Below, piece after piece: positions 25,075-42,522 of a stretch of 64,000 nucleotides of DNA. The stretch's first letter is position 1. Every line of letters starts with the position of its first letter. Source of the DNA: an uncultured Candidatus Binatia bacterium (lineage in GTDB: Bacteria; Desulfobacterota; Binatia; Bin18); NCBI GenBank assembly GCA_965200965.1, contig OZ241744.1, forward strand, positions 1,664,001 through 1,728,000, in the 5' to 3' direction. Both the position numbers and the translations under genes were made by a program. The notes beneath the pieces were generated by a model, which saw only the letters and a list, made by a program, of their open reading frames with translations, ran no database searches and had not been told where the DNA came from.

Positions 25075-25111
25075 ATTTCAATCCTCACCCAGCCCACAAG
25101 CCGGATGCTGT
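25075..25111 (-). repeat. Solitary variant CRISPR repeat
   Basis: ATTTCAATCCTCACCCAGCCCACAAGCCGGATGCTGT, 27/37 identical to the array repeat, hairpin retained. Confidence 0.85.
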
Positions 25112-25135: not shown

Positions 25136-25411
25136 CTAGGGCCAGATAACCCGGTCTTCTTCGGCCAGGAAAGCGACCGAGCTGGCTGTGTCAACAAAGC
25201 GCTTCACATCCTCAAACTGCTCACGCTGGAGTTCGTCAGACGCCCATGCCTGCTCAAACGTGGCCAAATCCGGCCACGATAACTCGGCCACGCCGTCAAA
25301 CGCCGGTGTATCAGTCTCATAGGCTTCGGGGCAGACATGACACTGCACATAGCGGCGCAGACCGGGCGTTCTGGGCACCAGCGGCGCGTGTATATTCCGC
25401 CAATAGTCCTG
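25136..25411 (-). pseudogene. EthD-family protein, 5'-truncated at the first CRISPR repeat
   Basis: Reads QDYWRNIHAPLVPRTPGLRRYVQCH...FDGVAELSW...FVD; frame runs into the repeat and stops there, N-terminal segment absent. Confidence 0.85.
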
Positions 25412-28400
25412 GTTTCAATCCTCACCCGCCCTTACGGGCGGATGCTATATGCTCGAAGAAACTCTCCACGGGCGGCAACACCGGTTTCAATCCTCACCCG
25501 CCCTTACGGGCGGATGCTATCAATCATGGTTGCTCCTTCACCTGATGGTGCTTCAGTTTCAATCCTCACCCGCCCTTACGGGCGGATGCTATTGCCTCCT
25601 TGCTTCGATCGCCCCTGCTCGCCTGTGTTTCAATCCTCACCCGCCCTTACGGGCGGATGCTATGGCTCGCGGCGACGACCTGCTGATCTTGTCGCATGTT
25701 TCAATCCTCACCCGCCCTTACGGGCGGATGCTATAGTCGTGCTGTTTGAGGGCCGCTCACATATCAACGTTTCAATCCTCACCCGCCCTTACGGGCGGAT
25801 GCTATTAGTCGGACAGACATCCGAGCCAAAGCCGGGCACACCGTTTCAATCCTCACCCGCCCTTACGGGCGGATGCTATGCCCGGACTGGGCCCACCTTC
25901 TCGGCAACATCCAGCATGTTTCAATCCTCACCCGCCCTTACGGGCGGATGCTATGCCCGGACTGGGCCCACCTTCTCGGCAACATCCAGCATGTTTCAAT
26001 CCTCACCCGCCCTTACGGGCGGATGCTATGCCCGGACTGGGCCCACCTTCTCGGCAACATCCAGCATGTTTCAATCCTCACCCGCCCTTACGGGCGGATG
26101 CTATGTGAGCGGACAGAGTTGGTGATCGAGGCCGACCGGTTTCAATCCTCACCCGCCCTTACGGGCGGATGCTATTTGAACAGAGCTTCAGGTCAGCGGC
26201 CAGAGACTCGATGTTTCAATCCTCACCCGCCCTTACGGGCGGATGCTATACTGGAAGCACGACCACTGGCTCGACGGAAGGCAGTTTCAATCCTCACCCG
26301 CCCTTACGGGCGGATGCTATGGAGTGCGCCAGTCTTTGCCAGGCTGCCGGCGGTGTTTCAATCCTCACCCGCCCTTACGGGCGGATGCTATCGCCCCGTA
26401 GAACTCCAACATCTTTGACTTCTTGCTGTTTCAATCCTCACCCGCCCTTACGGGCGGATGCTATCCCAATCCTAGGATTCCCCCGGCCACGGCCGGGGGT
26501 TTCAATCCTCACCCGCCCTTACGGGCGGATGCTATAACCGCCCGGCGCGGGTTGCGGGCTATCGCCAGAAGGAGTTTCAATCCTCACCCGCCCTTACGGG
26601 CGGATGCTATGCCGGTGAACTTTATGGCTTTCAGTTCGCCCACACTGTTTCAATCCTCACCCGCCCTTACGGGCGGATGCTATGGGGCCCGGTGTACCGG
26701 CTCCTGTCGGAGTGCACCTGGTTTCAATCCTCACCCGCCCTTACGGGCGGATGCTATTCCCGCCAGGTCTCGGCGAGGCTCATCTCCCGCCGCCTGTTTC
26801 AATCCTCACCCGCCCTTACGGGCGGATGCTATGCCGACCGCCAGGAGAGATTGACATGAAAGATCTGTTTCAATCCTCACCCGCCCTTACGGGCGGATGC
26901 TATGAGCTGCTCGCGCTCGTCCAAATCCCGCCTCTGGTGTTTCAATCCTCACCCGCCCTTACGGGCGGATGCTATGGCCCGGCGGTGTAGGTCCGGCGCA
27001 AAAAAGAGCCGTTTCAATCCTCACCCGCCCTTACGGGCGGATGCTATGGTGGCGTTGGGCTAGATCGGTACATCCACCAGGTGGTTTCAATCCTCACCCG
27101 CCCTTACGGGCGGATGCTATGACCCCATCGGGCGGTTGGCGAACAGTCCCATCAGTAGTTTCAATCCTCACCCGCCCTTACGGGCGGATGCTATGTCGGC
27201 GGCAAGGTCAGTTTCAGTCTACGCCTGCCTGTTTCAATCCTCACCCGCCCTTACGGGCGGATGCTATGTTGCTACGCTAACCAAAAAAGGGACGCCCAGG
27301 AGCGTTTCAATCCTCACCCGCCCTTACGGGCGGATGCTATGTTGGAGCGCCGACCGATATTCCCGCGCCTGTGGAAGTTTCAATCCTCACCCGCCCTTAC
27401 GGGCGGATGCTATGGTCTACGTCCAGAGCGAGGTCTCCTGCAAGATGGAGTTTCAATCCTCACCCGCCCTTACGGGCGGATGCTATGGCCTAGGGCATGT
27501 TGCCCTCGCAGCAACTCTCAACGTTTCAATCCTCACCCGCCCTTACGGGCGGATGCTATGGGTCTACGACCGGGACGAGACCCCGGAAGAAAAAGTTTCA
27601 ATCCTCACCCGCCCTTACGGGCGGATGCTATGATGATCTACGCCAAGCTGGAAGAGAGCATGAGCGTGTTTCAATCCTCACCCGCCCTTACGGGCGGATG
27701 CTATGGCCATGACGGATGTTCCTCTTGATCCACTTCTGGATGTTTCAATCCTCACCCGCCCTTACGGGCGGATGCTATGCCGATGGAGCCATATAGGAGG
27801 CGCGGGGTCAATCCTAGTTTCAATCCTCACCCGCCCTTACGGGCGGATGCTATGAGCAGCAGAGGCGTCAGCGTGAACTTGAGTTGCAGTTTCAATCCTC
27901 ACCCGCCCTTACGGGCGGATGCTATGCAGGCCCGGCCTGGTTGGCGGTGATCCCCCCGCTGTTTCAATCCTCACCCGCCCTTACGGGCGGATGCTATGGT
28001 CATGGAGGCCGGGCTGGCGGACCTGTACGCTAAGTTTCAATCCTCACCCGCCCTTACGGGCGGATGCTATGGACCCCTGACTGGCTAGAATCCCCTGGTC
28101 ACGCTGGTTTCAATCCTCACCCGCCCTTACGGGCGGATGCTATGTCTATCATGCTTGCCTCCTCAATCCAGGATTGCCCGGTTTCAATCCTCACCCGCCC
28201 TTACGGGCGGATGCTATGTCCAAGAGTCAACTCAATACGAGATTGTAGACGTAGTTTCAATCCTCACCCGCCCTTACGGGCGGATGCTATGTGGACAGCC
28301 GAAGCTGCCGACCTTCACCAAGGGGTTTCAATCCTCACCCGCCCTTACGGGCGGATGCTATGATCATCTGATGGCTCATACTGCCTCCTCAATCCTAGTT

Positions 28401-31400
28401 TCAATCCTCACCCGCCCTTACGGGCGGATGCTATGTCGATATCGAGGGCATGAAACCCCTCGTCACCCTGGTTTCAATCCTCACCCGCCCTTACGGGCGG
28501 ATGCTATGTGCTCGCGTCAATAAGCGGGGATGGGTTATCAAAGTTTCAATCCTCACCCGCCCTTACGGGCGGATGCTATGGCCGGGTTCTATCGTAGCGA
28601 CGGTTATCTCTACCTGTTTCAATCCTCACCCGCCCTTACGGGCGGATGCTATGTTCAGATACTCCATAAAGGGGTCAACAGGGTCCGTGTTTCAATCCTC
28701 ACCCGCCCTTACGGGCGGATGCTATGTTCTTCTTGGGGTCAGGCTGTGTCAGGCTGAAACGTTTCAATCCTCACCCGCCCTTACGGGCGGATGCTATGCT
28801 GTCGCCCTCTACAGAGATCGAGTGGCTGTCCGCAGTTTCAATCCTCACCCGCCCTTACGGGCGGATGCTATGTAGTTAGCCTTGTGTTGTTCAAGTTCCC
28901 ACTGCTGTTTCAATCCTCACCCGCCCTTACGGGCGGATGCTATGGTCAGCCAAGCCGTCCGGGCGTTCAGGTCCTGGTGTTTCAATCCTCACCCGCCCTT
29001 ACGGGCGGATGCTATGTTTTAGCCCGATGTTGCCGAGGGTCAGGTAGTAGTGTTTCAATCCTCACCCGCCCTTACGGGCGGATGCTATGGCCACTTGGGA
29101 TGGGTCCCTCTGGCGTATGCCTGGTTTCAATCCTCACCCGCCCTTACGGGCGGATGCTATGGCTCAGTCGCACCAAACGCTCGCCAGCTACGCCATGTTT
29201 CAATCCTCACCCGCCCTTACGGGCGGATGCTATGGGCATAACCGCTCAGGAGGGTAGCACCATGCAGAGGTTTCAATCCTCACCCGCCCTTACGGGCGGA
29301 TGCTATGTCCTCAGTGTAGCGAACATTTGACCCAGGTCCGAGTTTCAATCCTCACCCGCCCTTACGGGCGGATGCTATGCAGAATATAACCGGCCGCGTC
29401 TCGTTTCACGCAAGGTTTCAATCCTCACCCGCCCTTACGGGCGGATGCTATGGTCCGAAGCTGAGCTACTTACAGAATGACGCAAAAGTTTCAATCCTCA
29501 CCCGCCCTTACGGGCGGATGCTATGCGGACCTGGGGCTGCCCAAGCCCACCATCACGAGGGTTTCAATCCTCACCCGCCCTTACGGGCGGATGCTATGTT
29601 GAGGTGTTCGTCCGCAACAACTATGGGAGCTAGTTTCAATCCTCACCCGCCCTTACGGGCGGATGCTATGGGGCATGGCGATGATCGGTTTTTTATCGAG
29701 CACAAGTTTCAATCCTCACCCGCCCTTACGGGCGGATGCTATGACGCCCGGCCGGAAATACTCCCGACAGTATATGTGTTTCAATCCTCACCCGCCCTTA
29801 CGGGCGGATGCTATGTACTGTCTTGCTGCCAGGAACGTCGCCATAAAGGAGTTTCAATCCTCACCCGCCCTTACGGGCGGATGCTATGTCGAAGCGAAGG
29901 AGGACGAGTGATGTCGGTTATCAGTTTCAATCCTCACCCGCCCTTACGGGCGGATGCTATGGCGATGCTGCACGACCACAAGCCGTTGCCGTAGCTGTTT
30001 CAATCCTCACCCGCCCTTACGGGCGGATGCTATGGTGATACAATCTGCAACCAGGACGTGACCTACACGTTTCAATCCTCACCCGCCCTTACGGGCGGAT
30101 GCTATGATTGGCGGTCCTACGGCTCCGGCGACGCGGCGGACGTTTCAATCCTCACCCGCCCTTACGGGCGGATGCTATGCTCAACTTGCTGAGCGTTATA
30201 TTGTTCTGGTGGTGTTTCAATCCTCACCCGCCCTTACGGGCGGATGCTATGTTCAACACCGGCCTGAAAATCGCGGACATTGCTGAGTTTCAATCCTCAC
30301 CCGCCCTTACGGGCGGATGCTATGTTCAATTTCAACGACCAGATGCGCGGGTTCATCCGTGTTTCAATCCTCACCCGCCCTTACGGGCGGATGCTATGTT
30401 GGGTGCTGTCTTGGCCCGCCGGAACCACGGGGTTTCAATCCTCACCCGCCCTTACGGGCGGATGCTATGTTCTCCTGCACACCCGACCGCCTGATTGTCG
30501 GGCAGTTTCAATCCTCACCCGCCCTTACGGGCGGATGCTATGAAGGACTTCGGAGTCGGGTTGTTGACTACGGAAGGTTTCAATCCTCACCCGCCCTTAC
30601 GGGCGGATGCTATGTTGGGGTTGTTGAGAATTTGAACGATACGTTCAAGCGTTTCAATCCTCACCCGCCCTTACGGGCGGATGCTATGTCCGGCCAGGTC
30701 GCTGGCGGCCAGGCTGCTGAAGTCGTTTCAATCCTCACCCGCCCTTACGGGCGGATGCTATGGCCAAAACAATCGAGGATTTGCCGGAGGTAACATGTTT
30801 CAATCCTCACCCGCCCTTACGGGCGGATGCTATGGACGCCGCACACTGTATCCCGAGGCTTTGAGCGTGTTTCAATCCTCACCCGCCCTTACGGGCGGAT
30901 GCTATGGCTTCTCAGGGATTTTGGCGAGCTTCTGGCTGACCTGTTTCAATCCTCACCCGCCCTTACGGGCGGATGCTATGATCTCGTGAGAGAGAATGCT
31001 GTCCACCAGCCGCAGTTTCAATCCTCACCCGCCCTTACGGGCGGATGCTATGAAGTCAAGCTCATGCGCCCCGGCCGCCTGTGAGGGTTTCAATCCTCAC
31101 CCGCCCTTACGGGCGGATGCTATGTCGCAGTTGATATCCTCTGGGGTGAGCGTGTCGAGGTTTCAATCCTCACCCGCCCTTACGGGCGGATGCTATGATC
31201 TATTGTTTTGGAAGGGGCTTGACAAGGTTGGGGTTTCAATCCTCACCCGCCCTTACGGGCGGATGCTATGGGTAGCCCAAGATCATCATTGCTACTGCAC
31301 CCATGTTTCAATCCTCACCCGCCCTTACGGGCGGATGCTATGGGGCTTCTCCGCTACAGTGAAGAGAAGCAGCAGGTGTTTCAATCCTCACCCGCCCTTA

Positions 31401-34400
31401 CGGGCGGATGCTATGTAGCAATGCGCCCACACATGGGCGCTCACCTGGGAGTTTCAATCCTCACCCGCCCTTACGGGCGGATGCTATGCTCCTTCGCGTG
31501 GGGAGCCGCGGTTGTCGTAGCGGTTTCAATCCTCACCCGCCCTTACGGGCGGATGCTATGGTCGTGTACATCGCCGGCGCATGCCACAACTCCATGTTTC
31601 AATCCTCACCCGCCCTTACGGGCGGATGCTATGTTGAGCGCGCGTATAACCGCCTCGGATGGCTCAAGTTTCAATCCTCACCCGCCCTTACGGGCGGATG
31701 CTATGGCGATGAGAGAGGCGGTCGCCTACGGTCTGGAGGCGTTTCAATCCTCACCCGCCCTTACGGGCGGATGCTATGATGTTGTAGGCCAGAACGCGGT
31801 TGCGCCGGAAGGGTTTCAATCCTCACCCGCCCTTACGGGCGGATGCTATGTGTAGATTGGCTGTCGTCTCAAGCGGGCCTAGGGGTTTCAATCCTCACCC
31901 GCCCTTACGGGCGGATGCTATGTTGATCCTCTCGCTGCGGTTTACGGACAGGATGAGTTTCAATCCTCACCCGCCCTTACGGGCGGATGCTATGGGTGGA
32001 GGCGCGCAAGAATGAGTAGCCATTCTATGTTTCAATCCTCACCCGCCCTTACGGGCGGATGCTATGGCGCAAAGCCACCAAACGCTTGCGTCGTATGCCA
32101 TGTTTCAATCCTCACCCGCCCTTACGGGCGGATGCTATGGCCGCCGTGGCCGCCCACGCACCAAGACCGATTGGGTTTCAATCCTCACCCGCCCTTACGG
32201 GCGGATGCTATGAAGATATGCTGGGAGGTGCTAGCCGAGGAATGCCGGGTTTCAATCCTCACCCGCCCTTACGGGCGGATGCTATGTCCCTTATCCTGGC
32301 ATGTATCGGGTCAATCTCAAAGTTTCAATCCTCACCCGCCCTTACGGGCGGATGCTATGTTCACCGCTGGGTCGAGCATCGAGGTCTTCGTGCGGTTTCA
32401 ATCCTCACCCGCCCTTACGGGCGGATGCTATGGCCATGCGGCTATCCGTCATATCGTCAACGAGATGTTTCAATCCTCACCCGCCCTTACGGGCGGATGC
32501 TATGGTCATATGTTAGGCTCTCTCCAAATGGTGGGGTGGGTTTCAATCCTCACCCGCCCTTACGGGCGGATGCTATGCCTGAGCTCAAGGACCGAATCCA
32601 GGCGCTGGGGACGTTTCAATCCTCACCCGCCCTTACGGGCGGATGCTATGTCGTCCTTGGGTTCGGCGGATACCTACTCGTGGCCGGTTTCAATCCTCAC
32701 CCGCCCTTACGGGCGGATGCTATGTGCTTGTGAGCGACGCCATGCGGAACAAATACCAGTGTTTCAATCCTCACCCGCCCTTACGGGCGGATGCTATGTA
32801 CGGACTCATGCGTTTGTTGCCATAGCCTTGGAGTTTCAATCCTCACCCGCCCTTACGGGCGGATGCTATGGCCCTCTTGCTTGGCCGGGGCCGCATCACC
32901 ATCCAGTTTCAATCCTCACCCGCCCTTACGGGCGGATGCTATGGAGTCCATCGGATCATAGACGTTGCCAGGAGTCAGGGTTTCAATCCTCACCCGCCCT
33001 TACGGGCGGATGCTATGGGTCTATACAAGCGGCGGCGGAACCGGAAGCAGTGTTTCAATCCTCACCCGCCCTTACGGGCGGATGCTATGGAGCGCAAGGC
33101 GTCAATCACATATCACCTGCCATGTTTCAATCCTCACCCGCCCTTACGGGCGGATGCTATGGCGCCGGCGGTGCGGCGGAGTTTGATGTTTCATGTGGTT
33201 TCAATCCTCACCCGCCCTTACGGGCGGATGCTATGTCGACCGACCATTCTAGCAGTGGGCGGTATAACCAGTTTCAATCCTCACCCGCCCTTACGGGCGG
33301 ATGCTATGCCCTAAATGCTCTTCGGTCAGCCGCTTTTCCCACGGTTTCAATCCTCACCCGCCCTTACGGGCGGATGCTATGTTGGGTCAAACTATCTGGT
33401 CGTGATCGAGCAGATACCGTTTCAATCCTCACCCGCCCTTACGGGCGGATGCTATGATGGGACTCCTCGTATCGCATTGACCGGACGAGATGTTTCAATC
33501 CTCACCCGCCCTTACGGGCGGATGCTATGGGTTGGCGAGGCACGGGCATACTGCCTGACGATGGAGTTTCAATCCTCACCCGCCCTTACGGGCGGATGCT
33601 ATGACCAAGGTCAAAGCCACCAAGGTCAAAGCCACAGAGTTTCAATCCTCACCCGCCCTTACGGGCGGATGCTATGGCGAACATGTTTTCCCGTGGGAAA
33701 AGCGGCTGACCGTTTCAATCCTCACCCGCCCTTACGGGCGGATGCTATGGCCGGGGGGCCACAAGAAAGGAGCCGTTATGGCTGTTTCAATCCTCACCCG
33801 CCCTTACGGGCGGATGCTATGGCCCTTTTCACTGTTGCAGGCGGGACACAAGAGTTGTTTCAATCCTCACCCGCCCTTACGGGCGGATGCTATGGCTCAA
33901 GTCCGCCGCTGACACCATCACCGGAAAGTAGTTTCAATCCTCACCCGCCCTTACGGGCGGATGCTATGGCGCGATCATCTTCGGATTTCATCATCCGGGC
34001 GGTGTTTCAATCCTCACCCGCCCTTACGGGCGGATGCTATGTGCTTACCAAACCCACGCACCCAGGAGCGTAGTTAGTTTCAATCCTCACCCGCCCTTAC
34101 GGGCGGATGCTATGGCTATTATGCATGTAGGAGGTGAGGTGAGGTGACGTTTCAATCCTCACCCGCCCTTACGGGCGGATGCTATGCTCAAGACGCCCCG
34201 CGCTGTGGCGGACCTGGTGAGCGTTTCAATCCTCACCCGCCCTTACGGGCGGATGCTATGACTATGAGCTCGCCCTGCGGGGTATCAACGAGATGTTTCA
34301 ATCCTCACCCGCCCTTACGGGCGGATGCTATGCCGGCTATGTCCGTGGGCTACTGGAAGCGCATAAGGTTTCAATCCTCACCCGCCCTTACGGGCGGATG

Positions 34401-34693
34401 CTATGGCGGGCATGGTCGAACGGCGCTTTGTCCGTGACGTTTCAATCCTCACCCGCCCTTACGGGCGGATGCTATGAATGATGCTCTAGTCGGGCGCATA
34501 GTGTGGCACTGGTTTCAATCCTCACCCGCCCTTACGGGCGGATGCTATGCTGGTTCTTGGTGTCCTTCCCACATTTACGATTGGGTTTCAATCCTCACCC
34601 GCCCTTACGGGCGGATGCTATGCGCGGAGAGGCTGGACGCCAACGCGCTGGCCGAGGTTTCAATCCTCACCCGCCCTTACGGGCGGATGCTAT
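25412..34693 (-). CRISPR. Type I-C CRISPR array, 128 repeats and 127 spacers
   Basis: Invariant 37-bp core GTTTCAATCCTCACCCGCCCTTACGGGCGGATGCTAT (+ strand), unit period 71-75 bp; minus-strand repeat ends ATTGAAAC with a CCGCCC-GTAA-GGGCGG hairpin; leader and cas2 lie at the high-coordinate end. Confidence 0.99.
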
Positions 34694-34887
34694 GTCTTTC
34701 TCACCCAAGCCCTTGACCTGCCTGGGGTTTTTTCCCCGTTTCCGCGATCCCCTCTCTGGCAGGTCTGGAATCTGCACGCGGGAGATCAAGGATAACGAGA
34801 AAATCGTTATTATTCGGGTGCTTACGGTCAACGCGATCCTCCCCGCTGTTGCGCCGTCGCTCCAGGTTCGCACATGTGGATAGCCGC
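34694..34887 (-). promoter_or_regulatory. CRISPR leader
   Basis: Non-coding gap between cas2 and the array; CGCGATCC direct repeats at 34743 and 34832, related inverted GGTTCGCA at 34865, AT-rich middle. Confidence 0.85.
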
Positions 34888-35178
34888 TCAGGCCAGGAGC
34901 GGGTCATCAAAGTTGACCGAGGGGTTCACCCCAAAGTGCCGACAATGTTGGTCTTTGGGTTCTCGCAGACGATAAATACGCAAATTGTCCTCCTTGTCGT
35001 CAATGCACCTGACAAGGTCCCGAACCAGTCGCTCGTACTGCACCTGATCGACCGCGCATTCAAAGACAGAATACTGAACCCGCTGGCCGAAGTTCTTGCA
35101 CACCTGAGCGACCTTGCGCAGGCGTCGCTTGCCGGCGTCCGTTTCCGTTGCCACATCATAGGCGACTAACACCTGCAT
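34888..35178 (-). CDS. cas2: CRISPR-associated endoribonuclease Cas2
   Basis: VLVAYDV, RRLRKVAQVCKNFGQRVQYSVFEC; 96 aa. Confidence 0.97.
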   Translation of the reverse strand: MQVLVAYDVATETDAGKRRLRKVAQVCKNFGQRVQYSVFECAVDQVQYERLVRDLVRCIDDKEDNLRIYRLREPKDQHCRHFGVNPSVNFDDPLLA

Positions 35179-35229
35179 ATCCCGCTGATCCTTACCCAGC
35201 CCCAGGGCCGGATATTGCCCAGCCTGCCC

Positions 35230-36261
35230 TTAGCGATAGACAAAGGGCAGGTAGTCTTCCATGTCTCCACGCAGCACCCGCGCCAGGAGACGCGCCTGAA
35301 TGTGGGGAATCAGTCCAAGCGGCACTTTCTGTTCAAGAACAACATGCTGGACCTCTTCCTGTTTGCGCTTCTGGTAGGCAACAATGACCTCCTTGCGTCC
35401 GTCGTCGGTCAGGGACACAGCCCCGCCCGGACGGCTGACAAAATGCGCGGCAGTCAACTGCCTACGGTTAATCAGGGTCAGGGCCAGACGCTCGGCAATC
35501 ACCGACCGCAGTTCTTCCATCAGGTCCAAACCGAGAGCCGGCCGCCCCGGGCGCAAGGTGTGCAGAAAGCCCATCTGCGGATCAAGCCCGACTCCCTCAG
35601 CCGCGGCCACGCAGTCGCCCAAGAGCAGGGCATACAGAAAGGACAAGAGCGCGTTGGTCGGGTCTTTGGGTGGCCGACGGCTCCGACCGTCAATGCCAAA
35701 GGTGGCCCGGTCTTCCCGAATGAGACACGAGAAGGACTGGAAATGCCGACGGGCAGCATCGCCTTCAAAGCCCCGGAGTTGATCCAGCCCGTCGGCAGTC
35801 GCCAGCCTGCCCAGCGACGCCGCCAGGGAGCGGGCGGTTGCTTTGAGCGCGGCTTCGTCTTCGGGCGTTTTTGCCTCACGCGCCGCCCGCATGGTGATGT
35901 GGCGGGTATTCTGGATTTTGCCGGCAACGATATGCCGGGCGAGGGTCAGGGTGCGGCTCGGGTCACTCACCGCTTCGTGCTGGGCCTTGCGGAGCAGCAC
36001 ATTGCCCGAGACCGGCCCTTCCAACCGGGCCTTGAACCGCCCGTTGCGGTCCAGGAAGCTCACCGACCGCCCGTCATCGGCGCAGCGGTGCAACACGGCC
36101 GGGCTGATGAGCACATTGCCAAAGCAGACCAAGCCGCCGATGTGATGCAGCGGGACTTGCAGCTTGGTTGTGCCCTCAAGCTCGACGCGGAGCGTTTCGT
36201 GATCCAGCCGCACATACGCCTGGGGGGTCGTGACATATAAGGTATTGAGCAATTGGCGCAT
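35230..36261 (-). CDS. cas1: Type I-C Cas1 integrase
   Basis: MRQLLNTLYVTT, SGNVLLR, RRPPKDPTNALLSFLY, GFLH, LDLMEELR. Confidence 0.97.
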   Translation of the reverse strand: MRQLLNTLYVTTPQAYVRLDHETLRVELEGTTKLQVPLHHIGGLVCFGNVLISPAVLHRCADDGRSVSFLDRNGRFKARLEGPVSGNVLLRKAQHEAVSDPSRTLTLARHIVAGKIQNTRHITMRAAREAKTPEDEAALKATARSLAASLGRLATADGLDQLRGFEGDAARRHFQSFSCLIREDRATFGIDGRSRRPPKDPTNALLSFLYALLLGDCVAAAEGVGLDPQMGFLHTLRPGRPALGLDLMEELRSVIAERLALTLINRRQLTAAHFVSRPGGAVSLTDDGRKEVIVAYQKRKQEEVQHVVLEQKVPLGLIPHIQARLLARVLRGDMEDYLPFVYR

Positions 36262-36266
36262 GGATC

Positions 36267-36902
36267 TCAATCGGCGGCGACAAACAGGGCGCGGGCAAAG
36301 CCTTGCAGCCGGGCTTTTTCGCCCACCACCGCCGGCAGACACGAATCCTGTAAGGAACAGCGGTCGCAGCGGGCGTCATTGACCGCGGCGGGCAGCCGGC
36401 GGCGGGCCAGCATGTGCCGAATCTCGGCCACGCTGCGTTCCACCTGCTCCCGCAATTGGGCTGAGAACTCAAGCTCACGCCGACGCCGTGAACTGTGATG
36501 GAAGATCGCCCCTCTGGGGACCGCCTGCCCGGTCATTTCTTCGAGACATACGGCCTGGGCACAGAGTTGCAGATCGTCGTGCGTTTTCTGGCGGCGCGGG
36601 CCGTGCTTATACTCGACCGGGTAAGGAACCTCGCCGTGAAACTCGACCACATCCGCCCTGCCGACCAGCCCCAGCCGGTGGGACCACAGCGGCAAGGCCC
36701 GCTCAACTCGCACCCCGCTGAGGGTCTCGCCTACCGGCTCATCAACCTGCTCGTGGACCGCCCGCCCCCGAAGGGTGTACAGATTCTCATCAAAGGTCTG
36801 CTCCTGGTGAATCAGGGCGCACTGCCGCGGGCAGTAGCTATAGTGCTCCAGGGCCGAGATCATGATGGGGTCGTCGTCTGACCAAGTGGTTGAATTGGAC
36901 AC
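36267..36902 (-). CDS. cas4: Cas4 nuclease
   Basis: ISALEHYSYCPRQ, ADVVEF, PVEYKHG, QLCAQ, CDRCSLQDSC. Confidence 0.96.
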   Translation of the reverse strand: MSNSTTWSDDDPIMISALEHYSYCPRQCALIHQEQTFDENLYTLRGRAVHEQVDEPVGETLSGVRVERALPLWSHRLGLVGRADVVEFHGEVPYPVEYKHGPRRQKTHDDLQLCAQAVCLEEMTGQAVPRGAIFHHSSRRRRELEFSAQLREQVERSVAEIRHMLARRRLPAAVNDARCDRCSLQDSCLPAVVGEKARLQGFARALFVAAD

Positions 36903-36906
36903 ATCC

Positions 36907-37791
36907 TTATCCTATCAGGCGTTTCAACGCCACGCCCTCAGGAATGTCGACTTCTTCCACCGCCACGCTGTAATCGTCAAAATCACGCGGCACGGTGACG
37001 CCTTCTTTCAGCCCCGGCCGAATACGCGCAAAAAGGTCATGGGCATGCGCATTGCCGATTTGCGAGTCATGTTTGAATACATACAAGCCTCGGGTCGCCA
37101 TCTCGCCGCGGGCAGCCGAGCGGTCGTGCTCAAACATGTTGCTGAGCGCTTCCCACAGGAGCGCGAGGTCGTTATCGGAAAAGCCGGTTTGCGCTGCCAG
37201 ATGTGCCGACACAAAACCACGCGCCACATAAAGGCCGTAGGGCACAGTGTGTTTGCGGCCCATAGTCCGATTGTCTCCCTCTTGCTTTTCGGCTTCCGCT
37301 TCTGTCGCTACCGCCATGCGGGTGATCGAGTGTTCCTGAGCAGTAATAGAATCAACCGAGCGCGCAAATGTCAGTTGAACCGGGCCTCGCACCTGGCCGC
37401 AGTTCACACCCGTAGACATCACTGCGCCAAAAGTTCGCACATCGTAGAAGTTCTTGCACATCCAGGCCCGCGCCTCATCAACTTTTTCTCCGCCTTTGCG
37501 CTTTTTGCCGTCGGCCTTGAGTGCGTCGCCGGCACCGATGGCTTCATACGCGCGTTCGTGCTGTTTGTTGAGGATCGCTTTTTCCTTTACATAAATCTCG
37601 CAGGGCGGCTGCTCCGCTTTCACCAGACCGACGTAATTGCGGACTTTTCGTTTCAGACTTACGTCGGTCACAAGGCCCCGCCCGGTCTCAGCATCGACAC
37701 GGGGCAGATTACCCGCATCGGGATCACCGTTAGGGTTGCCGTCTTTCACGTCGAACACCAGGACAAAGTCGTACCGATTCTCGATTGCCAT
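36907..37791 (-). CDS. cas7c: Cas7c (Csd2)
   Basis: [44 protein letters not shown]. Confidence 0.97.
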
Positions 37792-37813
37792 GCTTACGCT
37801 CCTTTCAATGAGG

Positions 37814-39523
37814 TCAGCTTGATTTTTTGAAAAAATCCTGCCGCTGGTGGTAATAGCCGATAGCGAAGCGTCCCTGGTCTTCCAAAGCCAGTTGCCCTGG
37901 GAAATCGTCTATGCCGTCCATGATTTCACCGAGGCGTTTCTCCAGATTCACCACCCGGCCAGGATTCTCCAGTTTAGAGAGATGATGGTTTTTCAGCTTC
38001 AGCAGGGTCGAAAACACGATCACCGGCGTACTTGACGCCGCTCCGTAGTAGCGGTCGCGTATAGTGGCATTGAGGCCAGGGTTCGCCTCCTCTTGGATTT
38101 TCTCCAGCACCGCAAACAACCGGCCTAGCCGGTAGCCAGTGTTCATATTGGCTTCATCCAGAGACATACCGATCTCCTCCTTCATGCTCAGGTTTGAATG
38201 ACGTGTCGTTCGGTTGATGCAGGCTTTTATCAGCGCAGCGCGTGGATATGTCACTTGGTGCTCGGCGCGAATCCGGCGCACGGCAGCCGAGAGCAGCGTC
38301 TGCGGATAGGGCAGACCCGCGAGAATACTGCGCATCAACTCGCCCCCGAGGTTCGGCGGAATATTGTCCGCCTTGCCTTGGATTGCCACGGCCTTCAGCA
38401 GACGAAACACTGAAAGATAGGGCGGGTCACGCGGCGAACGTTCAATAGTCAGATCGTCAAGGTGCTGCTTAATCCGCCCGGCCATTTCGGCCACCGTAGC
38501 GTTGTGCCAGAAACGGATGGCGACCCGAGCTGCATTGGGAGAGATCCCTAATGCAAAAAATTTTGCTTTCCCCTCATTGTTCTCTAACAGGCCATGCGCA
38601 ATAGCGGCGTAGAGACTTTTCACCGCCTGCACATTACGGTCGGGGTCGTCTTTGGGCGGTTCGCCAAAAATGTCCACGGGCAGGGTCTCAAACTCCACCG
38701 GGCGGTCAGCCCAAAACACGACAGTGGCATCGCCGACTTGGAGACGTTGCGGTGAATCTTTGCGGAGGAGATAATTGAGCGCTGTGGTGTAGCTGAATGC
38801 TGTGCGCTTGCCGACAGGCGCGTTTGCGCCCTGCTTTTTCCCATATGAGCAGAACGCGGGCTTATCAAACGAGACGATGTTGGCTCCTGATGTTTGCGCA
38901 CCCCACACCCCCTTGATCGCCGCGTGCAGCTGCTCAACTTCGTCCGTCTCGCCCGTCACCAAGCACAATTCGCCTGCGCCTTGCGCGGTTTGATCTGCCG
39001 TGATGAACTCCGCGACTGCGGCACGCTGGCACACGAGGTCTATGTCGCCATGTAGGCGGAACGTCACATTCGGATTATTGTCGATAATCTCACTCCATGC
39101 ACTGTATTGTGACAAGGCTCCGATGTCCATACCCTGGAGGAAGGATGACACCGCTTGCACTCCCTCATCGCTCTGCGCTGTGGGAGAGAGCAATTCGATT
39201 TTGTCCCTAAAGGATTGGTGTTGCCTGGCAACGCGCTCAGGTTTCCCCTTCGTATCAACCCCCAGCGCGTATTCAACAGTATCCCACAGGAGATTTGCTT
39301 CGATGTTGACCGTTCTCTTCACCCCCTGCGGTACCAGAAATGCCTTCGCCCGTTTTTTCCTGCCCTCCCCCTCGCATGTATCTTCAATCTGTATCAGCTT
39401 TCCCTGGGCGTCAATTTCGAGGATGAACGGAATCTCTTTCCACTCGAAGCCCAGAGGAGCAACGACGGTGTCTGGCTCAGCCCTTTTGCGTTTGTAATAG
39501 TCACGGAGTGCTTGGAGAATCAT
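37814..39523 (-). CDS. cas8c: Cas8c (Csd1)
   Basis: [51 protein letters not shown]. Confidence 0.96.
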
Positions 39524-40251
39524 CCTCGTACCTCCTCACTGTTCCAGGTTGGAATGTCTACTACACCGTTCACCAGCCTCGCGCGGAAAAAACGCGGCTT
39601 GGGATCAGCGGGATTCCGATAATCCATATCGTACAGCATGTAGCCGAGTTCCCGCGTCTCGGCGATCGGACGCACTTCTGAATCTTTCGGCTCTACCAGG
39701 CGAAAGTCCGCCGCAAACTCACGACAGCCTAGATATGGCTGGTTCACGCACTGACCCTTGGCCGCGCGTCGCTCGAACATCGTCATGAATTTCACCGCCT
39801 GGTTTGGGGCGTCGTCTCTATCAGTCCCACCCGTATTAGCCGTTTGTTTGCTCAGGTGCGGGAAGTTCGGCCTGTATGAAGCGGGATCGCGCAACTCAAA
39901 CGACGCATGAATGCGGTATTGTACATCACGCAGAAACAGCCCTGCACGCTGTTGGCGATCGTCTTCAATGAAGATACCTAACCGACCAACCCCGGTTCGC
40001 ATTGCACTTTCGGCGTTGCGCGTTGAAGCGACGCAGCGGACCTCGTTACGGCGCAGATTGATCCATTTGATAGGGCTGAGCACTTCAATCCTGCTTACCT
40101 GCCAGCGTATCGCAGGTTTCCACAGGACAGACTCAAATATGGCTCGCGCCGCCGACGGTGTCATCACATCGTAACTGACGCGCTCGACCTTCATCTCTGG
40201 CCGCGTGAAACATGCGAAGTCGCCGCTGACTTCAAGGCAGTACGTTTTCAT
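39520..40251 (-). CDS. cas5c: Cas5c (Cas5d) crRNA-processing subunit
   Basis: GDFACFTRPEMKVERVSYDVMTPSAAR, RRNEV, QPYLGCREF. Confidence 0.97.
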   Translation of the reverse strand: MKTYCLEVSGDFACFTRPEMKVERVSYDVMTPSAARAIFESVLWKPAIRWQVSRIEVLSPIKWINLRRNEVRCVASTRNAESAMRTGVGRLGIFIEDDRQQRAGLFLRDVQYRIHASFELRDPASYRPNFPHLSKQTANTGGTDRDDAPNQAVKFMTMFERRAAKGQCVNQPYLGCREFAADFRLVEPKDSEVRPIAETRELGYMLYDMDYRNPADPKPRFFRARLVNGVVDIPTWNSEEVRG

Positions 40252-40260
40252 TGCTCTTCC

Positions 40261-42522
40261 TTAGCTGATCAAATCACTCGGATTCAGATTCGTCTCGTCC
40301 ACGAGGACCCCTAATTCCGGGTGATACAGCACCTCCGCAGTCTGCGCGAACATGTCGGAATACACTTCACGCACGTCACCCCTGCGCGACATCTGTTGGA
40401 ATTGGTAGTCCGGTAGCGACACGGTGTAGCGCTGGAGCCTCCGCATAAGCCGCCGCGACGGCCCGTCTTGGCGCAGCTGACTGATCAAGGCGGGGCTCTT
40501 GTCATAACGCACGATAATGCTGCGATAGCCCGATTCGTCAATCAACCGAAAACGCTGGGCCGCGGTACGGAACTGCACTTTCAACGGATCGTCGCCTTCG
40601 CCCTGGGGCATAAGCAATCCGGTTCTGCCGTTGCCGTGTATGTTGTGCTTGTCGAGAGACGGCGCTTTACAGTAGAAGTGCTGGAAATACTTCTTGAACA
40701 TATCGCGCTTGAACAGGTCGGCTATCGTCAACGGCTGGGAGCTCGCCCCTGCCAGCAACGAAACGGTAGTGTCTTCTGCACGGCGCAGATGTCCGAGAGG
40801 GGCACGGTTGGGTGGCACAAAGACGACGACCTGACCCCGATCCATCTTCCCCTCACGGTTACATCGCCCTGCCGCTTGCGCAATCGAATCCAGACCCGCA
40901 AGCGCACGGTACACAATGGGAAAATCCAGGTCGACGCCCGCCTCTACCAATTGGGTACTGACAACTCGTACATCTTCCCCGGTAAGCAGCCGCCGTTTGA
41001 TAGCAGCAATGACGCGCGACCGATGCTCACCACACATCAGGGCGGATAAATGAATCGTCCCTTCAGGCATGCGCCGGTGGAGTTCACGGGCGTCTGCACG
41101 CGAATTGACAACGGCAAGGACAGTAGCATGGTGCTGAATCTGGAGGGCGAGATCGTCCCATTCCTGCCGCTGATGGAAGTCCTCCGGCAGTGACACAGTG
41201 ACGCGCTCCAAATCGCGGTACAGGGTATCCGGGTCGGTGATGATTTCTCGCGTCCCCTCAAGGCCGCGAATCCTGTGTTGAAAACTGTGCAGCCGTCCCA
41301 ACTCTGGTTGGGTCGCGGTTGAGATGACGAAACTGACCCCATAGTAGCGAACAAGCAGATTCATCACGTCAAGAATCGGTTGCAGGAATTCAGGGGGGAG
41401 CAACTGGGCTTCGTCAAGGACCACCACACTGTTCACGATCTTATGCAGCTTGCGGCAACGGCTCGTTCTGGAGGCGAATAGTGACTCGAAGAACTGAACG
41501 TTGGTCGTGACAATGAGCGGAGCATCCCAATTCTCTGCCGCCAAGCGACTTTTCCCTGTCTCTTTTTCGGGATCGAGATTGCTGTGATGCTCAATCACTG
41601 CATCAGAAAAGATTGAGCGGAACACATTGGCGGTCTGCTCAATAATGCTGGTGTAGGGAATGGCATAAATCACCCGCCGCTTGCCGTGGCATTTTGCATG
41701 TTCCAGGGCAAAGGCGAGGCTCGATAGGGTCTTGCCCCCTCCGGTGGGGACGGTCAAGGAAAACAATCCCGGCGCTTCATGCGCCTTGTCCCGACACTGC
41801 CGCAGCACGGTGGCGCGGGTACGGTTCACGCGCGTCTCTTCCACACCTGAAAACCTTTTTTCAATCCAGGCATTAAACCGAGCGAGCATATCTGGAATCG
41901 TAGGCGCGCCGCCCCGCTGTGCGGCCTTGTCCGCATCCATAAACGCTTCGGTATCCAAAAAATCCGCGTCTACCAGGCAGGAAAACAAGAGACGTACCCA
42001 CAGCGCAAAGCCTTCTGATCCTCCCACCAATGGGCTGTTGGGCTTAGATTGTTTAAGAATTGAAGGGGGGATCGGCTGGCACAGTGCTCGTTCCACATGG
42101 CTCGGATCATCGAGGCGCGCTTTGAGTGCCGCTCCACGGGTCTCGCTCGTATGCCAATCTGGCAGGCCGGTGTGATGACCGGCGATGATGTAGGCGAGAA
42201 TCCGGCCGTGCAATCTGAATTGTTTTATGGCGTGCTGTGCGCCGGCAGTGGAATGATCAACCCGTCCGGCCTGTCCTTCAAGATGAGCCTCGGTATCGTA
42301 TCCAGATTGGGACCTGATACGCCTTTGAAATTCCTTGCTATATTTTCCCAGATCATGCCATGTCCCCGCTGGCCGCGCCCAATCTCCACTCCCAAAGGCG
42401 CACGCGAACTCGTCGGCGCGTTGGCCGACACCGCGGAGGTGGTCTTCCAAGTCATGCAAATCGAAGTCATTGTCAACCTGACGGATGTGCGCAATGAAGG
42501 CGGGTGGCTCTTTGGTCCTCAT
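40261..42522 (-). CDS. cas3: Cas3 HD nuclease-helicase
   Basis: WHDLGK, GHHTGL, LVDADFLDT, PTGGGKT, DEAQ, SATQP, QAAGRCNR. Confidence 0.97.
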   Translation of the reverse strand: MRTKEPPAFIAHIRQVDNDFDLHDLEDHLRGVGQRADEFACAFGSGDWARPAGTWHDLGKYSKEFQRRIRSQSGYDTEAHLEGQAGRVDHSTAGAQHAIKQFRLHGRILAYIIAGHHTGLPDWHTSETRGAALKARLDDPSHVERALCQPIPPSILKQSKPNSPLVGGSEGFALWVRLLFSCLVDADFLDTEAFMDADKAAQRGGAPTIPDMLARFNAWIEKRFSGVEETRVNRTRATVLRQCRDKAHEAPGLFSLTVPTGGGKTLSSLAFALEHAKCHGKRRVIYAIPYTSIIEQTANVFRSIFSDAVIEHHSNLDPEKETGKSRLAAENWDAPLIVTTNVQFFESLFASRTSRCRKLHKIVNSVVVLDEAQLLPPEFLQPILDVMNLLVRYYGVSFVISTATQPELGRLHSFQHRIRGLEGTREIITDPDTLYRDLERVTVSLPEDFHQRQEWDDLALQIQHHATVLAVVNSRADARELHRRMPEGTIHLSALMCGEHRSRVIAAIKRRLLTGEDVRVVSTQLVEAGVDLDFPIVYRALAGLDSIAQAAGRCNREGKMDRGQVVVFVPPNRAPLGHLRRAEDTTVSLLAGASSQPLTIADLFKRDMFKKYFQHFYCKAPSLDKHNIHGNGRTGLLMPQGEGDDPLKVQFRTAAQRFRLIDESGYRSIIVRYDKSPALISQLRQDGPSRRLMRRLQRYTVSLPDYQFQQMSRRGDVREVYSDMFAQTAEVLYHPELGVLVDETNLNPSDLIS

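Follow-up and report, generated by a model that had tools for sequence, protein, structure and literature searches.

How does a CRISPR array come to change the length of its repeat while it grows, and what sets the new length? The question is raised by a 64,000-nt stretch of contig OZ241744.1 (the window; coordinates are window positions) from an uncultured Candidatus Binatia bacterium (GCA_965200965.1), in which a type I-C array carries a 37-bp repeat in its oldest 19 copies and a 38-bp repeat in the 109 copies added since. We consider it likely that the longer repeat goes back to an insertion at the leader-repeat junction, which shifted the old repeat start beyond the cut position that a motif in the leader is predicted to set.

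The repeat switch and the origin of the extra base

Between 25412 and 34693 a 37-bp core occurs in 128 exact copies. The base following the core is G in 8 of the 19 oldest repeats (11 are not G; 6/17 are G when the triplicated spacer 7-9 is collapsed) and in 109 of 109 repeats from number 20 (26796) to number 128, including the leader-side base at 34694 (Fisher p 6e-12). These counts bear out the first-pass annotation, which had described a mixed base in repeats 1-19 and an invariant G from number 20, and the 37-to-38-bp switch is thus confirmed as real and persistent through 109 copies. The CRISPR RNA (crRNA) is read from the minus strand, on which the extra base is a C between the 3' end of the spacer and the 5' end of the repeat, upstream of the repeat hairpin that starts at core position 5. 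The leader-distal cut did not change at the switch: all 128 cores are identical, and the spacer base adjoining them is variable. The two blocks are as follows.

25412..26795, minus strand: old trailer-side block, repeats 1-19 of 37 bp, spacers of 34-38 nt, spacer 7-9 triplicated
26796..34694, minus strand: new block, repeats 20-128, each lengthened to 38 bp by a 5' C (crRNA strand), and 108 spacers that measure 33-37 nt excluding the C

A change in unit period from 71 to 72-73 bp had also been put forward. This is correct for the mode, which is 71 in the old block (7/19 units), while among the 108 new units 35 have a period of 72 and 51 a period of 73, but not for the mean, which is 72.84 in the old block (72.59 for unique units) and 72.79 in the new one (Mann-Whitney p 0.37). 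As the means are equal, the period was rejected as evidence for repeat extension. Within the new block, spacer 113 (33603-33638) holds a 15-nt tandem duplication. Array callers that give a 37-bp consensus would report a false invariant base inside the spacers.

The orientation given in the first-pass annotation is right, since the cas operon and the leader lie at the high end on the minus strand and TTC stands 5' of the protospacers of s88 and s114. The triplet in the position of the protospacer-adjacent motif (PAM) is TTC for these two (2/5 exact), TCC for s109 (with TTC one base off), TAC for s51 and TTG for s43. The extra base sits at the end opposite TTC, the PAM-distal end of the spacer, and, in agreement with the first-pass annotation, is not PAM-derived. 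It differs in this from the PAM-derived terminal base of Escherichia coli I-E, which is found at the PAM-proximal spacer end.

PAM-distal acquisition motifs are known as well (AAM in E. coli, NW in Pyrococcus), and the C could in principle be a newly gained motif of this kind, taken from the invader. Such a motif requires the base in every protospacer. Two overlaps with other arrays of the same genome read the position directly: s51 shares 19 nt, counted from base 2, with the I-E spacer E171, in which the G position is a T, and s75 overlaps the U6/U8 spacers over 18 nt with A at that position. (In the old block, s6 matches E23 starting at the first base.) Contigs from public runs add five cases, with G covered by the match in s88 (TTC PAM, 0 other letters), s43 and s48, and with G placed outside the match for s70 and s95 by read joints, an indirect reading that assumes these pieces to be the shorter side of the joint. 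The extra base is thus matched in 3/7 protospacers and missing in two direct and two indirect cases, which fits the 30% chance level of G (binomial p 0.44).

Spacer ends give a second line of evidence. In 54 other arrays with 37-bp repeats from the family (2090 spacers), the 3' end is A-rich at position -2, T-poor at -3 and T-rich at -4. The new spacers agree with this profile once the C is taken off (z 7.9) but not while it is retained (z -1.6). The same base also stands on the leader side of repeat 128, though no spacer adjoins there. What speaks for a motif, beside the three matching protospacers, is that the mean spacer length with the C counted in equals that of the old block (35.8 new vs 35.6 old). 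Because only 3/7 protospacers match where a motif needs 7/7, and because the profile comes into register only with the C removed, the extra base is part of the repeat, of repeat or leader origin, and is copied at each integration. An acquisition motif is very improbable, since the mismatching protospacers would all have to have mutated at precisely the position of the extra base. The first-pass annotation had preferred the repeat or leader origin and named protospacers carrying the C as what would speak against it; the C occurs in them at the chance level.

Other searches yielded no further protospacers. The new-block spacers had no match among 50,697 phage records, and three spacer patterns (3/127 spacers tried) matched viral contigs in 0/3 cases. 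Spacers compared with plasmids gave only repeat-like matches, in 13 records; those compared with five same-genus genomes gave no protospacer and one repeat match, and those compared with the collected loci gave three weak partial matches, none of which cleanly reached the G position. Overlaps of 10 nt ending short (s57, s72, s95) were left out of the protospacer evidence. The exact repeat had 0 matches in metagenome contigs. In sample X1, which may be the source sample, joints at a depth of ~14 pair spacers 48, 49, 70, 75, 93 and 95, which suggests a co-occurring element targeted by several of them; two other arrays also have spacers against the s51 target.

Where leader and repeat join, and the spacing of the cut

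In I-C the non-PAM end attacks the leader-repeat junction, according to the available part of the structural work (10.1101/2022.05.30.494039), and the extra C, lying at the boundary of spacer 3' end and repeat 5' end, therefore belongs to the junction formed by that attack. Six other samples from two studies (X2, X3, X4, X6, X7 and X8) cover this junction; the organism-labelled runs among those listed are sponge metagenomes, and no RNA data set appears in that list. X2, X6 and X8 have a two-letter gap at 34693, X4 has the joint of X2, X3 is one base shorter than the window, and X7 has the window's length with two different letters. Elsewhere in 34695-35230 the listed differences number 0 for X2 and 1-3 for X6-X8. 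X2 keeps the 37-bp repeat, as its spacer starts vary (C, A, C, A and G in the five listed) and the 31-mer with G reaches a depth of 3300 against 8000 at the core end (41%). X3 and X6 each gave a single collapsed repeat.

The window allele therefore has two extra bases, A and C, relative to the commonest sister allele, and only the C is copied. The first-pass annotation had the cut moving one nucleotide into the leader. This stands in so far as the C is now repeat; it does not stand in that the leader is not unchanged, the junction having gained two bases of which one stays leader. The elements of the leader side are listed here.

34694, minus strand: extra junction C, template for the 38th repeat base; missing in X2, X3, X4, X6 and X8
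34695, minus strand: the other base gained at the junction, an A that stays leader and is not copied; missing in X2, X4, X6 and X8, present in X3; column 39 is variable
34695..34887, minus strand: leader, between cas2 and repeat 128; aligns with the leader of the relative G007
34704..34733, minus strand: conserved leader motif, an A-tract plus an imperfect inverted repeat of 24 bp; the motif's first C (34727) is 33 bp from the cut
34706..34718, minus strand: predicted 13-mer in the motif resembling an integration host factor (IHF) site, 7/9 consensus positions, consensus from the accessible part of PMC5224486

Of 54 other genomes of the family, 12 (13 loci) matched the motif pattern, with G037 added separately; a joint search for leader and repeat in 400 phylum genomes gave no match besides the window, and the motif as written is therefore limited to the family. 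Rows were dropped for G004, whose repeats are divergent, for L150, which duplicates the sequence of G032, and for L033, which has no array. In the 13 relative loci, from which G004 is left out, the first C of the motif lies 32 bp from the duplicated start in 9 and 33 bp in 4. In the window, the old repeat start lies 34 bp from the motif and the actual cut 33. The site similar to WATCAANNNNTTR agrees at 7/9 positions in the window and at 6-8/9 in the 13 relative loci, as raw counts with no chance baseline, and lies 10-11 bp from the cut in 10/13 of these loci. The genome has three genes of the IHF/HU family. According to the available text of 10.1101/2023.05.26.542337, IHF sites are present in most I-C leaders, at a spacing that depends on the subtype.

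The local letters at the junction were considered as a cause and rejected: G007 and G002 also have a C directly before a repeat that starts with A, at a distance of 32, and their repeats stay at 37 bp through 126 and 79 copies. Thus it is the spacing and not the local letters that separates these cases from the window. The repeat starts with G in 62/67 of the 37-bp arrays surveyed and with A in the window lineage. At the attacked base, Cas1 of Pyrococcus prefers G, then C, as stated in the part of PMC6698737 that is available, and a 5' GT is essential in I-F (10.1101/2023.05.26.542337, same portion). The genome G019 has two I-C loci (L169 and L170) that differ by one G at the junction, with spacings of 32 and 33 and the same G-start repeat in both.

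We propose that the IHF-like motif acts as a ruler which would place the leader-side cut at 32-33 bp. The insertion, of A and then C or of both together, would have pushed the old repeat start out to 34 bp, and Cas4-Cas1-Cas2 would now cut at 33, ahead of the inserted C, so that the C is copied into each new repeat. On this proposal only the C of the two extra bases is copied because the leader motif holds the cut at 33 bp. The far cut would be set by motifs inside the repeat, by analogy with I-E and I-B. Loss of the usual 5' G in this A-start lineage may be what lets the leader set the cut and makes the junction leader-dependent, and C may be favoured over A within the reach of the cut.

Competing explanations

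Several observations weigh against an insertion read by a leader ruler. The role of the motif is predicted from sequence comparison, and the 13 loci that define the spacing are kin. In G004, with a 37-bp repeat, the motif is 35 bp away from the repeat start and so falls outside the range of 32-33; this locus was excluded from the count because its 3 repeats differ among themselves. No array was recovered for X3 or X7, and the X7 allele comes from one contig at a depth of 5.4. The readings for s70 and s95 depend on the assumed shorter piece at the joint, and no record bridges repeats 19 and 20. X2 differs from the window at three Cas residues (Cas1 P133L, Cas4 Q126R and R181H), where the window residues also occur in 37-bp relatives. 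Finally, the insertion model leaves a tightening of spacer length and a loss of T at -3 unexplained.

The latter two changes are clear in the counts. T at -3 from the spacer 3' end occurs in 0/108 new spacers, in 2/17 old ones and in 53/450 of those in 37-bp relatives (p 1e-5), and spacers of at least 37 nt make up 6/17 of the old but 2/108 of the new (p 6e-5); the spread of lengths differs between the blocks as well (Levene p 3e-6). The longer repeat as an established cause of shorter spacers was rejected, as old and new lengths differ with p 0.12, G462 combines spacers of 34.9 +/- 0.9 nt with a 37-bp repeat and G021 combines 35.9 with one of 38 bp. Taken alone, the shortening does not exceed what the family shows (G462), and the exclusion at -3 goes beyond every relative tested. 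Another array of the genome, at G000:C1 2072250, likewise has no T at -3 (0/22, including duplicates).

The difference in length spread, together with the lack of a record bridging repeats 19 and 20, is also what a recombinant array or an assembly join at a repeat would leave, in which a leader-cas block with 38-bp repeats was put beside the old block of another strain. The old block shows the family end profile in no register (n=17), and the contamination of the genome is 5.74%. On the other side, the genome is one contig, and the X1 depths are alike in the trailer (31.9), one old unit (31.6), the new units (28.3-33.3) and the cas block (32), without other letters, which argues against a mixed assembly of two strains; recombination between strains could still have produced the array. 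We regard an origin of this kind as unlikely. Were it true, the base would still be repeat-borne and the boundary would date no event.

The length and composition shifts at about the same point would also suit a change in Cas1, Cas2, Cas4 or a host factor that moved the cut by one base into a leader which itself stayed as it was, and the three residues at which X2, with its 37-bp repeat, differs point the same way. X4 differs at the same residues and X3 at Cas4 V92I, where the window residue is again found in 37-bp relatives. The leader is not unchanged, however, with 5/6 of the other samples shorter at the junction; X2 has no cas2 differences, 37-bp relatives carry the same residues as the window at the three sites, and the cas1 and cas4 single-nucleotide differences that set X2, X3 and X4 all apart from the window are synonymous in 6/6 cases. 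Proteins were compared for cas1, cas4 and the cas2 of X2, and two cas2 differences (X7, X8) at the nucleotide level. The suggestion that altered proteins had switched the adaptation machinery thus finds no support in these comparisons, and we hold it to be improbable. An insertion at the junction, with the cut placed by the leader motif, is the account we prefer.

How the insertion arose is a separate matter. The seven samples contain four junction alleles. We raise tentatively, as a doubtful but conceivable idea, that in this A-start lineage the integrase itself turns the junction into a mutational hot spot, where imprecise reversal of half-site integration leaves terminal prespacer bases behind. 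The ruler would turn bases past 33 bp into repeat, and the longer repeat would proofread prespacers harder, in line with the absence of T at -3 and the few long spacers.

The Cas operon, other arrays and known systems

The type I-C operon of the window is complete and lies on the minus strand, in the order cas3, cas5c, cas8c, cas7c, cas4, cas1 and cas2, with all curated cut-offs passed. A profile scan found no Cas6 among the seven open reading frames at 34888-42522.

34888..35178, minus strand: cas2, TIGR01573, 72 bits
35230..36261, minus strand: cas1 (type I-C), TIGR03640, 504.6 bits against a cut-off of 385, ATG at 36261
36267..36902, minus strand: cas4, TIGR00372, 134 bits
36907..37791, minus strand: cas7c, TIGR02589, 405.6 bits
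37814..39523, minus strand: cas8c, TIGR01863, 632 bits
39520..40251, minus strand: cas5c, TIGR01876, 201 bits
40261..42522, minus strand: cas3, TIGR01587 and TIGR01596 above cut-off

At the other end of the array, an intact repeat 1 abuts the middle of a putatively EthD-like gene at 25136-25411. G007 has ~460 more bases there, including the gene start, so the trailer end and the 5' half of the abutting gene appear to have been deleted. The junction of repeat 1 and gene is common to X2, X3, X6 and X8. Four solo, diverged I-C repeat copies lie elsewhere, at 25075-25111 in the window and at 891596-891632, ~1452279-1452315 and 970930-970966 of G000:C1, at least two of them directly after a stop codon; in the relatives G015 and G019, repeats have gaps of 1-4 kb between them. 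G000:C1 carries four more arrays, at 2072250-2073862, 2215437-2216815, 2819954-2833583 and 3365835-3372515 (23, 21, 224 and 86 repeats). That at 2215437 has a 37-bp repeat and 30-nt spacers, and no cas1 match was found nearby.

A survey for similar switches, covering 6 of the 64 parts of the collection, flagged one of 50 arrays with at least 16 repeats. In this unrelated 37-bp array (L050:1-800), 10 of the first 11 repeats have a T in front of them; the locus is cut off before the leader, and extension is indistinguishable from chance. The G007 array (L021) shows another change, its first repeat base going from A to G and back to A in blocks of 5, 11 and ~110 copies. The five of its spacers that lie nearest the leader measure 31, 41, 45, 67 (including a partial repeat) and 41 nt, which suggests a recent loss of precision.

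Published mutants of I-E and I-B already account for this kind of event, which makes the locus valuable as a test case rather than surprising. In E. coli I-E, insertions upstream of the first inverted repeat (IR1) gave >76% 29-bp repeats, as reported in the available text of Goren et al. 2016 (PMC5039180). The likeness is that a one-base insertion upstream of IR1 is copied into new repeats, the leader fixing the first cut and internal anchors the second. The array described here differs in being natural, in belonging to I-C with Cas4, in being fixed in 109/109 copies and in having gained two bases of which one is copied. In Haloarcula hispanica I-B, one-base duplications led to 31-bp repeats (Wang et al. 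2016, PMC4872114, available text). There too the duplication comes from the leader-repeat junction and an extra base upstream of the anchor lengthens the repeat by one; two-base changes upstream of AACCC, however, abolished adaptation, whereas the two-base gain in the window was followed by 108 acquisitions. As in the leaders phased by IHF (10.1101/2023.05.26.542337 and PMC5224486, in the parts available), the predicted IHF-like site of the window would stand at a fixed distance from the cut. The 5' GT rule of I-F, as given in the same part of 10.1101/2023.05.26.542337, sets the window apart, as its array integrated before 5' AT and then before 5' CA. No report of a natural junction-born repeat extension was found in the literature searched, a scope that ends short of subscription journals and bioRxiv supplements, and the available texts of a 2026 survey of repeat mutations (PMC12839519), a review (PMC8047081) and PMC6519985 describe no such natural block.

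On the placement of the two I-C cuts, the I-C structure paper leaves the role of leader elements to future work in the part that is available. The strains compared here form a natural allele series with 0, +1 and +2 junction bases in near-identical systems, and they offer a numeric prediction, a cut 32-33 bp from the leader motif. The array has made 108 acquisitions into a repeat without the 5' GT that is reported as necessary in most systems. If the junction is indeed a hot spot of the integrase's own making, adaptation errors would drive the evolution of repeat length and, with it, retune the choice of spacers.

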